Positions 1 through 7,221 of a stretch of DNA of 7,221 bases are shown in pieces. Position 1 is the first letter of the stretch, and each line of letters starts with the position of its first letter. The notes under the pieces are model-generated. The model was not told the DNA's origin and made no database searches. It saw nothing but the letters and a program-made list of their open reading frames with translations. The stretch is from a virus (lineage: Duplodnaviria > Heunggongvirae > Uroviricota > Caudoviricetes), in the IMG/VR virus record IMGVR_UViG_2531839523_000007. One strand, written 5' to 3'. A program made the position numbers and the translations under genes.

Positions 1-2263
<2,263 letters not shown>

Positions 2264-2281
2264 ATTTTATAACCCAGAACG

Positions 2282-2308
2282 GGCGTCAGAAATGACGCCT
2301 TTTTTATT
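2282..2308 (+). terminator. Rho-independent terminator downstream of J
   Basis: Perfect 7-bp stem GGCGTCA (2282-2288) / TGACGCC (2293-2299) with a GAAA tetraloop, followed directly by TTTTTT (2300-2305) then ATT. Confidence 0.7.
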
Positions 2309-2329
2309 GCAGAAAAGCGAGAGGTAATT

Positions 2330-2929
2330 ATGCGTAAACTTTATGCCGCCATTTTGTCCGCAGCCATTTGTCTGGCCGTATCCGGTGCGCCTGCATGGGC
2401 GTCTGAACATCAGTCCACGCTGAGCGCTGGGTATCTTCATGCCCGGACGAACGTTCCCGGCAGTGATGATCTGAACGGGATTAACGTGAAATACCGTTAT
2501 GAGTTTACGGACACACTGGGGCTGGTTACGTCATTCAGCTATGCAGGAGACAAGAATCGCCAGCTGACCCATTACAGCGATACCCGCTGGCATGAAGATT
2601 CCGTGCGTAACCGCTGGTTCAGCGTGATGGCGGGGCCGTCTGTACGCGTGAATGAATGGTTCAGCGCGTATGCGATGGCAGGCGTGGCTTACAGCCGTGT
2701 GTCGACTTTCTCCGGGGATTATCTCCGCGTAACTGACAACAAGGGGAAAACGCACGATGTGCTGACAGGAAGTGATGACGGTTGCCACAGCAACACGTCT
2801 CTGGCGTGGGGGGCTGGCGTGCAGTTTAACCCGACCGAATCCGTGGCCATTGATATTGCTTATGAAGGCTCCGGCAGTGGCGACTGGCGCACTGACGGTT
2901 TCATCGTGGGTGTCGGTTATAAGTTCTGA
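2330..2929 (+). CDS. lom: Lom/Ail-family outer membrane beta-barrel protein (phage moron), 199 aa
   Basis: ATG at 2330 preceded by a GAGG Shine-Dalgarno (2321-2324). N-terminal Sec signal peptide with an AxA site (..GAPAWA/SEHQ). C-terminal half is close to lambda Lom as I recall it, including the ending ..IAYEGSGSGDWRTDGFIVGVGYKF with a terminal aromatic beta-signal. Position between J and stf matches lambda. Confidence 0.93.
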   Translation: MRKLYAAILSAAICLAVSGAPAWASEHQSTLSAGYLHARTNVPGSDDLNGINVKYRYEFTDTLGLVTSFSYAGDKNRQLTHYSDTRWHEDSVRNRWFSVMAGPSVRVNEWFSAYAMAGVAYSRVSTFSGDYLRVTDNKGKTHDVLTGSDDGCHSNTSLAWGAGVQFNPTESVAIDIAYEGSGSGDWRTDGFIVGVGYKF

Positions 2930-2956
2930 TTAGCCAGGTAACACAGTGTTATGACA

Positions 2957-2982
2957 GCCCGCCGGTTCAGGCGGGCTTTTTT
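2957..2982 (+). terminator. Rho-independent terminator downstream of lom
   Basis: Stem GCCCGCC (2957-2963) / GGCGGGC (2970-2976) with loop GGTTCA, followed by TTTTTT (2977-2982). Starts 28 nt after the lom stop. Confidence 0.75.
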
Positions 2983-2993
2983 GTGGGGTGAAT

Positions 2994-5900
2994 ATGGCAG
3001 TAAAGATTTCAGGTGTACTGAAAGACGGCACAGGAAAACCGGTACAGAACTGCACAATCCAGCTGAAAGCAAAACGTAACAGCACCACGGTGGTGGTGAA
3101 CACGCTGGCCTCAGAAAATTCGGATGAAGCCGGGCGTTACAGCATGGACGTTGAGTACGGTCAGTACAGCGTTATTCTGTTGGTGGAAGGATTCCCGCCG
3201 TCACATGCCGGGACCATCACCGTGTATGAAGATTCCCGACCCGGTACGCTGAATGATTTTCTCGGTGCCATGACGGAGGATGATGCCCGTCCGGAGGCTC
3301 TGCGCCGTTTTGAACTGATGGTGGAAGAGGTGGCGCGTAACGCGTCCGCGGTGGCACAGAACACGGCAGCCGCGAAGAAGTCAGCCAGTGATGCCGGCAC
3401 ATCTGCCCGTGAGGCGGCAACCCATGCGACTGATGCTGCAGGCTCAGCGCGTGCAGCCAGCACGTCAGCCGGACAGGCCGCGACTTCGGCTCAGGAGGCG
3501 TCTTCCAGCGCAGGAACGGCATCAACAAAGGCCACTGAAGCATCAAAAAGTGCTGCCGCTGCAGAGTCCTCAAAAAGCGCGGCGGCCACCAGTGCCGGTG
3601 CGGCGAAAACGTCAGAAACGAATGCTGCAGCGTCACAAAAATCAGCAGCCACTTCTGCATCCACTGCGACGACGAAAGCGTCAGAAGCCGCCACTTCAGC
3701 CAGAGATGCGGCGGCCTCCAAAGAGGCGGCAAAATCATCAGAAACGAACGCCTCCACAAGCGCCAGCAGTGCAGCCTCCTCGGCAACGGCGGCAGGAAAT
3801 TCCGTGAAGGCGGCAAAAACGTCCGAGACGAATGCCAGGTCTTCTGAAACGGCAGCGGAACAGAGCGCCTCAGCTGCGGCAGACTCTGAGACAGCAGCTG
3901 CATCATCGGCCCGTGAGGCGTCCATTAAGGCAGAGGAGGCAGCAGTCAGTGCCACCGCCGCCGGAAAATCGGCAGAAAGCGCCGCATCATCCGCTTCAAC
4001 AGCCACAACGAAGGCTGGCGAAGCCACTGAACAGGCCACTGCAGCAGCGAGGGCTGCTTCCGCAGCGAAGACATCCGAAACGAACGCGAAAGCGTCGGAA
4101 ACCAGCGCAGAATCCTCAAAAACGGCTGCCGCATCGTCCGCCAGTTCGGCGGCGTCATCGGCATCATCTGCGTCTGCTTCAAAAGATGAGGCGACCAGAC
4201 AGGCGTCAGCAGCGAAGGGCAGCGCCACGACGGCATCCACGAAGGCGACAGAGGCAGCTGGTAGTGCGACAGCGGCAGCACAGAGCAAAAGTACGGCAGA
4301 ATCCGCAGCAACGCGCGCTGAGACAGCGGCAAAACGTGCAGAGGATATTGCATCCGCCGTGGCGCTTGAGGATGCGAGCACGACGAAAAAGGGGGTAGTA
4401 CAGCTCAGCAGTGCGACCAACAGCACGTCTGAAACGCTGGCGGCAACGCCAAAGGCAGTAAAAGCAGCCTATGACAATGCAGAGAAACGTCTGCAGAAAG
4501 ACCAGAACGGTGCTGATATTCCCGACAAGGACCGCTTCCTGAGTAACATTAATGTTTACAGCAAAGGTGAAGTGGATCAGAAAAAGGGGATGCGATACGT
4601 TGTGGTAAATGCCCCGGCGGGTGTCCAGGAAGGTAAATATTATCCGTTAGTGATAAAAAGGAATGACAGCCATCGGGCATCCCGCGTTGTCATTTCAACG
4701 CCAAGTCGCTCAGCTAATCACAGAATGAATAATTGTGAGTTTAATGGTTTTGTTTGCGCAGGCGGCTGGACGGACCGGGGTAGCTATGCCTGTGGTATGT
4801 TCTGGGCTTATTCATCATCGGAACGCGCTATTCATTCCATTCTGATGAGTAATAAAGGCGATACCGTAGACAGCGTATTCTATATAGAAGGTGGGGCATT
4901 TCCCGTAGAGGTCTTTTTAGAAGAAGGTCTCTCCGTTACTGCACCTGCTTCTGATTATATTGTTGCTGAAACGACTTATAAATTTGGCGCAACTGATCCT
5001 TATTCTGAATCAGTTGCGGTAAATTTAATTTTAGATTTTAAACAAGGTAATGGATTTTATAGTTCGTATCCTGTTTTGAGTAAGTCAGACATTAGCGGGA
5101 ATAAGATTTACGCTAATGATGAAGTTATTGTCCGTAGTCAGAACGCGTTAAGGATGATTGCAGGTGATTACGGTGTCATATGGCGAAATGATGGAGCAAA
5201 TACTTACTTGCTCATGACTGATAAAGGCGACCAGTACGGTGGCTGGAACGGTCTTCGACCATTTGCAGTAAATAACGCAACAGGTGAAGTGACGATCAAT
5301 ACACCACTTAATTCTCCTAAGGGGATTAAGGGAAATTCTGATACAGCTACGAAACTTCAGACAGCAATAAAAATATCTGGTGTTTCGTTTGATGGTTCTA
5401 CTGATATCACTTTAACCGCTGCGCATGTTGCTGCTTTTGCCAGAAGAGCAACGGATACGTATGCCGATGCGGATGGGGGCGTTCCCTGGAATGCCGAATC
5501 AGGCGCTTACAATGTCACTCGCTCTGGCGACAGCTATATTCTGGTTAACTTCTATACCGGAGTCGGAAGTTGCCGGACCTTGCAGATGAAGGCGCATTAC
5601 AGAAATGGTGGTCTGTTCTACCGTTCTTCAAGAGACGGTTATGGTTTTGAGGATGACTGGGCAGAAGTTTATACCTCGAAAAATCTTCCACCAGAAAGCT
5701 ACCCAGTCGGCGCACCAATCCCGTGGCCATCAGATACCGTTCCGTCTGGTTATGCCCTGATGCAGGGGCAGACTTTTGACAAATCTGCTTACCCGAAACT
5801 TGCAGCTGCTTATCCGTCAGGCGTGATCCCTGATATGCGTGGCTGGATGATTAAGGGCAAGCCCGCCAGTGATCGAGCCGTATTGTCTCAGGAACAGGAC

Positions 5901-6410
5901 GGCATTAAATCACACACCCACAGCGCCAGCGTATCCAGTACGGATTTGGGGACGAAAACCACATCGTCGTTTGATTACGGCACTAAATCCACGAATAACA
6001 CTGGTGCGCATACCCATAGTGTTAGCGGTACGGCTGCTTCAGCCGGTGCACATACCCATTCGATGACATTTGTTTCAGGTGGTTCCAGTGGTGCTCCGGG
6101 AAGTGGATCACCTGATTATTCTAAATACAGTGTTAACACTTCTTCTGCAGGCGCTCATACGCACTCTGTATCGGGTACTGCTGCAAGCGCAGGTGCACAC
6201 GCGCATACTGTCGGTATTGGTGCTCATACGCACTCTGTATCGGGTACTGCTGCAAGCGCAGGTGCACACGCGCATACTGTCGGTATTGGTGCTCATACGC
6301 ACTCCGTTGCGATTGGTTCACATGGACACACCATCACCGTTAACGCTGCTGGTAACGCGGAAAACACCGTCAAAAACATCGCATTTAACTATATTGTGAG
6401 GCTTGCATAA
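2994..6410 (+). CDS. stf: Side tail fibre protein, 1138 aa; mosaic of a conserved N-terminal anchor, an Ala/Ser/Thr-rich shaft, an AT-rich central module, a tail-collar-like domain and a His-box (HxH) tip
   Basis: ATG at 2994 gives [26 protein letters not shown]..., the canonical lambda Stf N-terminus as I recall it; the GTG at 2988 used by the ORF track is probably not the start. A GGGG/GGTG SD-like sequence lies at 2985-2990. Internal [24 protein letters not shown] phage tail-fibre repeat motif (about 4390-4460). Collar-like signature [47 protein letters not shown] (about 5680-5860). About ten HxH motifs of the GAHTHS type (about 5905-6335). Stop TAA at 6408-6410. Confidence 0.93.
3340..4380 (+). 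repeat. Low-complexity Ala/Ser/Thr-rich coding repeat region within stf (predicted fibre shaft) with recurring AKTSETNA units
   Basis: Imperfect dispersed repeats of the type aaaacgtcagaaacgaatgc at about 3603-3625, 3731-3752, 3811-3837 and 4062-4088. The protein is A/S/T/E/K-dominated. Lack of stop codons in several frames generates the spurious overlapping ORFs in the track. Confidence 0.8.
6153..6304 (+). repeat. Perfect in-frame 69-bp tandem duplication (two full copies plus a 14-bp start of a third) in the His-box tip region of stf
   Basis: 6153-6221 and 6222-6290 are identical (gctcatacgcactctgtatcgggtactgctgcaagcgcaggtgcacacgcgcatactgtcggtattggt), encoding [23 protein letters not shown] twice. 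6291-6304 repeats the first 14 nt and then diverges. An older copy at about 6003-6066 encodes nearly the same peptide with different codons. Confidence 0.9.
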
Positions 6411-6994
6411 TGGCATTCAGAATGAGTGAACAACCACGGGCCATAAAAATTTATAATCTGCTGGCCGGAACTAATGAATTTATTGGTGAAGGTGATGCAT
6501 ATATTCCGCCTCATACAGGTCTGCCAGCAAACAGTACCGATATTGCACCGCCAGATATTCCGGCTGGCTTCGTGGCTGTTTTCAACAGTGATGAGTCATC
6601 GTGGCATCTCGTTGAAGATCATCGGGGTAAAACGGTTTATGACGTGGCTTCCGGCGACGCGTTATTTATTTCTGAACTCGGTCCGTTACCGGAAAATGTT
6701 ACCTGGTTATCGCCGGAAGGGGAGTTTCAGAAGTGGAACGGCACAGCCTGGGTGAAGGATACGGAAGCAGAAAAACTGTTCCGGATCCGGGAGGCGGAAG
6801 AAACAAAAAACAACCTGATGCAGGTAGCCAGTGAGCATATTGCGCCGCTTCAGGATGCTGCAGATCTGGAAATTGCAACGGAGGAAGAAATCTCGTTGCT
6901 GGAAGCATGGAAAAAGTATCGGGTATTGCTGAACCGTGTTGATACATCAACTGCACCTGATATTGAGTGGCCTACGAACCCTGTCAGGGAGTAA
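6410..6994 (+). CDS. tfa: Tail fibre assembly protein (chaperone), 194 aa
   Basis: ATG at 6410-6412 overlaps the stf stop (TAATG). The translation [61 protein letters not shown]... matches lambda Tfa (194 aa) as I recall it. GAGG lies 9 nt upstream. Stop TAA at 6992-6994. Confidence 0.93.
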
Positions 6995-7008
6995 TCATTG
7001 GGATTATG

Positions 7009-7041
7009 CCGCAGCACGTCTTAAGCAAGAACGTGCTGCGG
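7009..7041. terminator. Hairpin between convergent genes; candidate bidirectional terminator or protein-binding palindrome
   Basis: Perfect 11-bp inverted repeat CCGCAGCACGT (7009-7019) / ACGTGCTGCGG (7031-7041) around an 11-nt loop containing the palindrome CTTAAG. The T-run TTTTTT (7052-7057) is 10 nt downstream, so it is not a canonical intrinsic terminator on either strand. Confidence 0.4.
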
Positions 7042-7048
7042 TTGGATG

Positions 7049-7221
7049 CTATTTTTTCCCTGAAGCGGAAAACATTACTACAGTACCTTGAACCTTGGTT
7101 TTAACATTCTCGAAATGCTCTGAGAGTATATGTGTTAAGCCTTCTTCGGAATCTTTTGTGTTTGAAAAGATGCCTTTCTGATTGTAAATGCGCATCAGTT
7201 TTTGACCGAAGCTATTGTGCA
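7049..7221 (-). CDS. Hypothetical protein, C-terminal 57 codons only; 5' end lies beyond the right edge; convergent with tfa; AT-rich
   Basis: Minus-strand frame is open from the window edge to a TAG stop (plus-strand cta at 7049-7051), translating ...HNSFGQKLMRIYNQKGIFSNTKDSEEGLTHILSEHFENVKTKVQGTVVMFSASGKK*. An uninterrupted 57-codon frame in roughly 38% GC DNA is unlikely by chance. Absent from the ORF track because the start is off-window. I do not recognise the family. Confidence 0.45.
   Translation of the reverse strand, partial: HNSFGQKLMRIYNQKGIFSNTKDSEEGLTHILSEHFENVKTKVQGTVVMFSASGKK

Follow-up and report, generated by a model that had tools for sequence, protein, structure and literature searches.

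The lom gene and its two flanking terminator-like hairpins in a lambdoid tail module

In bacteriophage lambda, the tail-tip gene J is followed by lom and the side tail fibre gene stf, and lom has been named as encoding a moron product (PMC3594210). A moron, as defined for gene 15 of phage HK97, has a promoter of its own and differs from its surroundings in G+C content (Juhala et al. 2000; reviewed in PMC3594210), and lambda Lom has been assigned a role in adhesion (cited in PMC3594210). In the literature, lom, stf and tfa are assigned to the late transcript that depends on Q (bioRxiv 10.1101/2023.05.14.540688). Expression of lambda lom in lysogens has also been reported (PMC7067206; PMC1151598). 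However, lom mRNA was not detected in lysogens in a microarray study, according to which the promoter of lom is poorly known (PMC2147009). Moreover, terminators in late operons were proposed to silence stray prophage transcription (PMC1151598, citing Juhala et al. 2000).

Here, we have analysed positions 2264-2993 of a stretch of viral DNA comprising 7,221 nucleotides (IMG/VR record IMGVR_UViG_2531839523_000007; hereafter the window). An earlier note on this DNA had described the region as a lom moron that is insulated by intrinsic terminators on both sides and located inside the late tail operon.

Layout of the J-lom-stf-tfa region

The window covers the right-hand end of the tail genes of a lambdoid phage, with the 3' part of J followed by lom, stf and tfa (Table 1). 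The J part matches the Pfam families Ig_J, Ig_J_second, Phage_Tail_Tip and Ig_GpJ_C, and near-identical loci in E. coli are annotated as gpJ in RefSeq. Over 1.1 kb around lom, many temperate phages of E. coli and Stx-converting phages share 95-98% identity with the window, and 4,084 of 5,426 complete E. coli genomes contain the J-lom-stf junction, mostly more than once (median, two copies).

Table 1. Features of the window around lom
Feature	Position	Strand	Remarks
J, 3' part, tail-tip host-specificity gene	65-2263	+	732 C-terminal codons; runs off the left edge; stop codon 2261-2263
TTATAACCC spacer, J stop to T1	2267-2275	+	found in the flanks of 80 viral loci and of genome loci
T1, predicted intrinsic-terminator-like element	2281-2308	+	8-bp stem GGGCGTCA/TGACGCCT, GAAA loop (4 nt), then TTTTTATT; tail TTTTT(A)TT
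lom Shine-Dalgarno sequence GAGAGGT	2319-2325	+	4 nt 5' of the ATG; read from the sequence
lom, precursor of a 199-aa Ail/Lom-family 8-strand outer-membrane beta-barrel	2330-2929	+	signal peptide aa 1-24; stop codon 2927-2929
T2, predicted intrinsic-terminator-like element	2956-2982	+	8-bp stem AGCCCGCC/GGCGGGCT (7 G-C pairs), loop GGTTCA (6 nt), then TTTTTGTG; tail TTTTT
stf ribosome-binding region GGGGTGA and ATG (2994)	2985-2996	+	identical to the start of lambda stf (orf-401)
stf, side tail fibre, 1138 aa	2994-6410	+	Pfam phage_tail_N, Collar, Phage_fiber
tfa	6410-6994	+	Pfam Caudo_TAP

As claimed in the earlier note, lom is flanked on both sides by a hairpin with a T-run (T1, 2281-2300; T2, 2956-2977) and thus lies between two intrinsic-terminator-like hairpins within the J-lom-stf-tfa tail block. 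The distances given there are each too long by 2 nt: T1 begins 17 rather than 19 nt past the J stop codon, and T2 begins 26 rather than 28 nt past the lom stop codon. The T1 hairpin is separated by 29 nt, including the Shine-Dalgarno sequence, from the lom ATG, and the T2 hairpin by 16 nt from the stf ATG. The TTATAACCC spacer is conserved beside J C-termini of widely differing sequence, and the lom Shine-Dalgarno sequence is conserved in lambda and in all related loci.

The corresponding region of lambda (NC_001416, 18904-19649) has the same gene order and similar spacers (J-lom, 61 nt; lom-stf, 64 nt; 66 and 64 nt in the window), with one hairpin and T-run behind J and another behind lom. 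The terminators behind J in lambda (t'J series) were reportedly mapped experimentally by Luk and Szybalski in the early 1980s. In 60-nt windows, the last 100 or so nucleotides of lom, T2 and the start of stf are 85-93% identical to lambda. In contrast, the Lom proteins (199 aa in the window, 206 aa in lambda) are only 47% identical, only 44% of the last 150 residues of J are identical, and Stf of the window has a length of 1138 aa. The hairpin at the T1 position of lambda (CGTCCG-GGAA-CGGGCG, then TTTTATT with four T's in a row) is unrelated to T1 and weaker (-9.0 kcal/mol). Sliding identity to lambda ranges from 0.32 to 0.68 across lom, with one island of 0.82 at 2470-2529, and climbs to 0.85-0.93 from about position 2830, through T2 and into stf. 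Thus, the end of lom, T2 and the start of stf form one mosaic block.

Hairpins T1 and T2 and transcription through them

Folding yielded -13.0 kcal/mol for the T1 hairpin and -17.6 kcal/mol for the T2 hairpin, and both are more stable than shuffled sequences, in agreement with the strong hairpins noted before. In its 36-nt context, T1 reaches -14.7 kcal/mol (z = -4.8), a stability that none of 200 shuffles attained; the z-score of T2 in context is -2.8. T1 and T2 are the two top-scoring terminator-like sites of the window, and both are located in intergenic gaps on the + strand. A strict scan of both strands for perfect stems (7 bp or longer, four or more G-C pairs) with a loop of 3-8 nt and a T-rich tail returned T1 and T2 as the sole sites on either strand of the 7.2 kb. 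Dinucleotide-preserving shuffles (n = 200) contained 0.025 sites per window on average, and 0.5% of them had at least two sites. Thus, the two features are real and non-random. Because the minus strand has no T-run at either site, T1 and T2 would be unidirectional.

An Rfam scan of the whole window with E-values up to 1 gave no match at T1, T2 or lom. A minus-strand match to ST7-AS1_2 inside lom was regarded as noise (24.8 bits; gathering score 50). A palindrome between lom and T2 (TAACAC-A-GTGTTA, 2941-2953) was also discarded: about two palindromes of this size are expected by chance per spacer length in 7 kb, by our estimate, and one variant (L090) alters the palindrome without compensation.

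The evolution of both elements was followed in 80 viral contigs encoding a Lom that is 96-100% identical to that of the window, and in genome loci. The T1 stem occurs as GGGCGTCA/TGACGCC, GGGCACCA/TGGTGCC and GGGCGCCA/TGGCGCC, with the loops GAAA, GGAA, GAGA and TTTC; in the latter case (L050), the loop is inverted and the stem is unchanged. Across 14 distinct variants, 97.3% of the cells are paired, as compared to 32-61% with a slid partner. Two of the eight pairs change on both sides, and the covariation score was reached by none of 500 shuffles. Pairing is kept through double changes from G-C to A-U and from U-A to C-G, and a U-G intermediate is present. Moreover, the T1 position is occupied by the unrelated hairpin in lambda and by GGCACCTC-AG-GAGGTGCC followed by six T's in L091, a variant of the lambda clade, which suggests that the structure and the T-run have been kept while the sequence was replaced. 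The comparison of these sequences indicates that T1 is under structural selection. In the listed flanks, read by eye, the T1 stem variants appeared to follow the upstream J allele. One locus (L081) is a recombinant: its junction falls into the T1 loop, and two of its pairs are mismatched. Two further loci appear to carry insertion sequences at or beside T1, as judged from the upstream open reading frames.

T2 and the entire lom-stf spacer are nearly invariant across the loci, lambda included, with changes from G-C to G-U and rare singletons only, and T2 is therefore uninformative for covariation. The T2 of lambda (AGCCCGCCGG-AA-CCGGTGGGCT) has a similar stability (-17.1 kcal/mol). Instead of selection for its structure, recent recombination could account for the conservation of T2.

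The moron reading raises the question of how lom is transcribed. A scan of the + strand for the sigma-70 consensus (at least 9 of 12 matches), which does not reach weak or activator-dependent promoters, revealed no site upstream of lom or stf. From its sequence, the 29-nt gap between T1 and lom could not hold a promoter. Individual -10 candidates, examined by eye, were also rejected: TATAAC (2268-2273) lacks the last T of the hexamer and a usable -35 element, and AGAAAT in the T1 loop as well as TTTATT and TATTGC in the T-run lack a key -10 base or any -35 element. The TATTAT sequence that follows the T1 hairpin of lambda is not conserved in the allele of the window. A small RNA of Phi24B located 'downstream of lom' (24B_1; PMC4426718) was not considered further because it belongs to another genomic context and is reported to be absent from lambda. 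As there is no promoter-like site between J and stf, stf and tfa would be reached only through T1 and T2, and the earlier claim that both genes depend on read-through of the two hairpins from upstream is borne out for sigma-70-like sites on the + strand.

We consider it likely that positions 2264-2993 represent the lom cassette of a lambda-type prophage and that T1 and T2 act as Rho-independent terminators of + strand transcription that are read through by Q-modified polymerase in lytic growth. In the repressed prophage, unmodified RNA polymerase would halt at T1, which would end stray transcripts of the tail genes, and T2 would end any lom transcript and thereby keep stf and tfa silent. During lytic growth, polymerase that has started at a late promoter outside the window and has been modified by a Q-type antiterminator would ignore T1 and T2, and one late transcript would give rise to J, Lom, Stf and Tfa. 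Because Q and pR' lie outside the window, we infer antitermination at this locus from lambda biology. Q-modified polymerase of lambda ignores terminators.

This property of the polymerase is of relevance for another function of the hairpins, which could mainly stabilise RNA 3' ends or form barriers to processing and decay that set the ratios of the J, lom and stf-tfa messages. Most of the RNA concerned is expected to be made when terminators are ignored; furthermore, a stable stem marks the immediate 3' end of both J and lom, and the compensatory pairing in T1 fits any role of an RNA structure. However, a T-run is located directly 3' of both hairpins and has been kept in lambda, in L091 and in the phages Gifsy-1 and 1H12 despite the replacement of the stems. 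An intrinsic terminator needs a T-run, while a decay barrier does not, and we regard a role mainly in RNA stability as very unlikely.

If T1 and T2 are terminators, as we prefer to think, the lack of a recognisable promoter in the cassette implies that expression of lom in the prophage state starts upstream of or within T1, or leaks through T1. A lysogenic promoter upstream of T1 would in turn mean that T1 is not an efficient terminator for that transcript.

The Lom barrel and its divergence

Lom matches the Pfam family PF06316 (Ail_Lom) over its full length (E = 1.3e-120; 400.8 bits, cut-off 23; residues 1-199 on profile positions 1-199). Read from the sequence by eye, the precursor begins with MRKLYAAILSAAICLAVSGAPAWA, a putative signal peptide ending in APAWA, followed by SE, and the C-terminus (GVGYKF) ends with the aromatic residue of a beta-signal. 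The structure of lambda Lom has been solved (9wso_C). With a shallow alignment confined to close relatives, AlphaFold reached a pLDDT of 40, and this model was discarded in favour of one built on an alignment of both Lom clades, which has a mean pLDDT of 80.1 and eight strands (residues 29-38, 48-58, 63-81, 86-106, 111-135, 141-166, 172-181 and 190-198). Frameshifted lom pseudogenes from Shigella (L090, L105 and L109) were left out of the protein alignments. In the model, the strands are predicted to be antiparallel, with four extracellular loops and both termini in the periplasm, and the best fold matches are Ail (3QRC and 3QRA) and OmpX (1QJ9). The Pfam match, the model and the fold matches thus support the earlier assignment of the protein as an Ail/Lom-type outer-membrane barrel with eight strands and a signal peptide.

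Lom has in common with Ail from Yersinia pestis (3QRA/3QRC) and OmpX from E. coli (1QJ8/1QJ9) an eight-stranded barrel with protruding beta-hairpins (fold E-values from 1e-11 to 9e-11; TM-scores of 0.67-0.77 on the target; sequence E-values of about 1e-18). It differs from both in being phage-borne, in a sequence identity of 28-32% and in much longer loops L2 and L3, which in the alignment have 7 and 15 extra residues, respectively, compared to OmpX.

The earlier note had assumed that the N-terminal half of Lom diverges from lambda Lom and that the C-terminal half is conserved. The contrast does exist but is weak (35% identity for aa 25-110 and 58% for aa 111-199), and loop L3 (aa 122-155) diverges as much as L2 although it belongs to the C-terminal half. 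When the alignment is mapped onto the barrel, with the membrane boundaries within the long strands set by our own estimate, the divergence falls into the surface loops L1-L3; surface loops had also been suspected in the note. Identity to the lambda-type Lom amounts to 11% in L1, 23% in L2 and 24% in L3 (22% for the three loops together), as compared to 61% in the barrel and the periplasmic turns; L4 and strand 8 are 100% identical. Considering all extracellular residues, the identity is 30% versus 61% for the barrel and turns (Fisher p = 6e-5). On the basis of the model, loops versus barrel appears to be a better description of the divergence than N-terminal versus C-terminal half. The identical C-terminus would largely reflect a recombination block at the DNA level and not structural constraint alone.

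Chimeric Lom alleles have been found in both directions: P0072 and P0103 combine a lambda-type N-terminus with a remainder of the window type, and P0148 is the reverse. The existence of such alleles suggests that the loops are exchanged by recombination at conserved strands. Lom would be exported via its signal peptide and would fold into an Ail/OmpX-type barrel with eight strands, of which the long L1-L3 hairpins are variable and exchangeable. The idea that Lom is tuned to the receptor specificity of its own J was rejected because Lom proteins of a single cluster (at least 90% identical) occur together with nine clusters of J C-termini, which are only 17-89% identical.

lom as an added cassette and comparison with morons

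The phage 1H12 lacks lom and carries a single terminator between J and stf, which are 58 nt apart. The J stop codon is followed by ATTTTAAAACCCAAATTC, GGGCACCAGAAATGGTGCC (a T1-type hairpin), TTTTTTATTT and GTGGAGTGAATATG (stf). The left half of this spacer corresponds to the window from J and T1 up to the T-run, and the right half to the sequence following the T-run of T2. According to this alignment, the cassette would consist of the Shine-Dalgarno leader, lom and the T2 hairpin, with its ends in the two T-runs. In PhiR12_2_star, too, a cargo gene is absent from the slot, and a strong hairpin followed by seven T's stands directly in front of the stf-like gene. The lom cassette therefore looks like an insertion at a pre-existing J-stf terminator, as far as the compared sequences tell. 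Since the lom-less 1H12 has kept a T1-type hairpin as its sole J-stf terminator, T1 was probably not acquired to insulate lom.

The ends of the 1H12 indel in the T-runs could also be explained if the intergenic blocks were primarily patches of homology for recombination, that is, module boundaries or linkers, with the hairpins as incidental passengers. Mosaic junctions on these blocks, such as the one of L081 in the T1 loop, would fit this explanation, and so would the occurrence of the same Lom sequence beside nine J C-terminal clusters and the identity to lambda of 92-93% in the block from the lom 3' end via T2 to the stf 5' end, as compared to 32-68% in the body of lom. We nevertheless hold it to be improbable, because the compensatory double changes in T1 and the non-homologous hairpins in lambda, L091 and Gifsy-1 show that structure was kept and sequence was not, which runs counter to the prediction for a pure patch. 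One role does not, however, exclude the other.

Instead of being expressed independently in the prophage, lom might simply be one of the late genes. Its product would keep sibling phages from adsorbing again to cells that are already infected, and T1 and T2 would be general terminators of the late operon. Over-expressed lambda Lom strongly protects against lambda-vir and not against T7, and the levels made by the prophage are not protective (PMC12366544); the same report also states that Lom expression climbs strongly late in infection (citing Liu et al. 2013). The absence of a promoter-like site, the spacing of only 29 nt from T1 to the ATG, an inserted cassette without room for a promoter, and the failure of the one array study to detect lom mRNA in lysogens (PMC2147009) point in the same direction. 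However, several studies report expression of lambda lom in lysogens (PMC7067206; PMC1151598 and references therein), the exclusion was observed with lambda Lom, which is 47% identical to Lom of the window, and the occurrence of one Lom allele, at 90% identity or more, beside J C-termini of only 17-89% identity argues against a Lom that is tuned to its own J. A purely late role of lom thus seems unlikely to us, although less so than the two other explanations of the hairpins.

In Gifsy-1 (NC_010392), a different gene occupies the slot between J and stf. The arrangement resembles that of the window: behind J, a hairpin ending in a T-rich tail precedes a short Shine-Dalgarno leader and a cargo gene whose product has a signal peptide, and a GC-rich hairpin and six T's then lead up to the stf ATG. 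Two hairpin and T-run elements thus flank the cargo. It differs in the cargo itself, an unrelated secreted protein of 81 aa without an Ail/Lom barrel. The J-stf gap of lambdoid phages might therefore be a terminator-bounded cargo slot, in which promoter-less cassettes consisting of a Shine-Dalgarno sequence, a gene for a secreted or outer-membrane protein and a terminator swap by recombination at T-runs. The cargo would be a late gene first, with Lom blocking re-adsorption of siblings, and lysogenic conversion would occur only via leakage through T1. This proposal was suggested by the missing promoter, the indel ends in the T-runs, the other cargo in Gifsy-1, and the late rise and the exclusion of lambda-vir reported for lambda Lom; as a whole, we consider it doubtful. 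If true, the strength of T1 would set the dose of Lom in the prophage state.

A terminator-flanked lom gene in a lambda-type tail operon is already known and very common, and the interpretation given in the earlier note, which is essentially that of the textbook lambda lom, is partly supported. It needs three corrections: the cassette has no recognisable promoter, T1 is probably the ancestral J-stf terminator, and Lom diverges by loops and a recombination block rather than by halves. The descriptive gains are the cassette without a recognisable promoter, the pre-existing J-stf terminator, the structural selection on T1 and the mosaic lom alleles that swap surface loops. These points sharpen an old question, namely where lom transcription originates in the lysogen, which is the one real gap in the interpretation of lom as a moron.

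The insulation of lom by terminators holds in so far as T2 is located 3' of the gene; however, T1 predates lom, as judged from 1H12, and T2 belongs to a block that is shared with the 5' end of stf. Similarly, the moron layout is only partly recovered. Compared with morons of the HK97 gene 15 type, no promoter of lom was detectable in the consensus scan, and its G+C content (0.55-0.58, as compared to 0.47 at the end of J and 0.52-0.53 at the start of stf) is not distinctive in a heterogeneous region, the window ranging from 0.38 to 0.65. What lom shares with these morons is that it constitutes an extra gene in the tail operon, placed between genes that are adjacent in relatives such as 1H12 and PhiR12_2_star, that it is followed by a stem-loop terminator-like element of its own, though one whose block extends into stf, and that its product acts on the cell envelope.

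Length variation and decay of lom

The lom gene, which encodes the 199-aa outer-membrane beta-barrel Lom, contains two copies, 42 nt apart, of the 10-nt direct repeat TGGTTCAGCG. Database variants of the protein carry either a 14-aa deletion (for instance, P0022 and P0063) or a 14-16-aa duplication (P0015 and P0004), and in both cases the changes end at the corresponding WFS motifs. Comparison of the sequences suggests that the length variants arose by slippage between the two copies. In the L3 surface hairpin of the barrel, residue 152 is a cysteine encoded by TGC (motif DDGCHS), whereas nearly all close relatives possess an arginine at this position (DDGRHS).

Decayed copies were found among the compared loci (L034, L010, L088, L090, L105 and L109). 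An apparent insertion sequence separates T1, the predicted intrinsic terminator after J, from lom in L034 and another lies within the left arm of T1 in L010, both elements having been called from upstream ORFs rather than by a scan of a family library. Moreover, lom pseudogenes with frameshifts are present in Shigella flexneri and in the E. coli strain ECMA0423.

Lambda Lom and lambda-type matches

The structure of lambda Lom has been solved (PDB 9wso, chain C; one entry with two chains of that sequence), and a partner molecule in this entry, if present, could bear on the function of Lom. Lambda Lom-type matches in genome_contigs (L092-L104, L106-L108, L110 and L112-L115) come from assemblies labelled as Neobacillus, Kitasatospora, Leeuwenhoekiella, Bradyrhizobium, Pseudomonas, Shewanella and others, and several of the contigs are about 48.4-48.5 kb long. 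The exact lambda T1 sequence occurs in 17 loci, including L001 and L092, and that of T2, the predicted terminator after lom, in 15. The matches in these assemblies are almost certainly due to contamination by lambda control DNA.

The tail fibre genes and the hairpin downstream of tfa

Stf comprises 1138 aa. Alanine accounts for 36%, serine for 22% and threonine for 13% of residues about 120-480, and seven GAH(A/T)H(S/T) repeats are located close to the C-terminus. Within stf, the G+C content drops locally to 0.38, which suggests that Stf is a mosaic fibre. A segment wholly inside the tail-fibre-assembly ORF tfa matches the Rfam family IS009 (RF02111) over its full length, scoring 223.6 bits vs a gathering score of 117. 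The remnant of a tfa gene in a prophage may have been the source from which this "sRNA" family was constructed. The hairpin downstream of tfa is very stable (-23.9 kcal/mol, z = -4.4) and, together with the T-run that follows it, is a possible end-of-operon terminator. It is absent from the calls of the terminator scan, presumably because it exceeds the loop-length limit of the scan. Furthermore, a weak CssrB match below the threshold overlaps this hairpin.

Features of the window and J-stf gaps of other phages
Feature	Sequence	Positions	Strand	Remarks
10-nt repeat	window	2615-2624, 2657-2666		within lom
Codon 152 of lom	window	2783-2785	+	
stf	window	2994-6410	+	
Low-G+C segment	window	about 4800-5250		within stf
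tfa	window	6410-6994	+	
IS009 match	window	6753-6951	+	
Hairpin	window	about 7008-7042	+	directly past tfa stop; stem GCCGCAGCACG/CGTGCTGCGG(T)
T-run	window	7054-7059		~12 nt beyond the hairpin
J-stf gap of 1H12	L120	1440-1503		no cargo, one predicted terminator
J-stf gap of Gifsy-1	L116	2155-2500		81-aa secreted protein flanked by two predicted terminators
J-stf gap of PhiR12_2_star	L119	2319-2500		no cargo; strong hairpin ahead of stf

The J-stf gap in other phages

Comparison with the lom-less phage 1H12, Gifsy-1 and PhiR12_2_star indicates that the gap between J and stf may behave as a cargo slot with predicted terminators at its borders.
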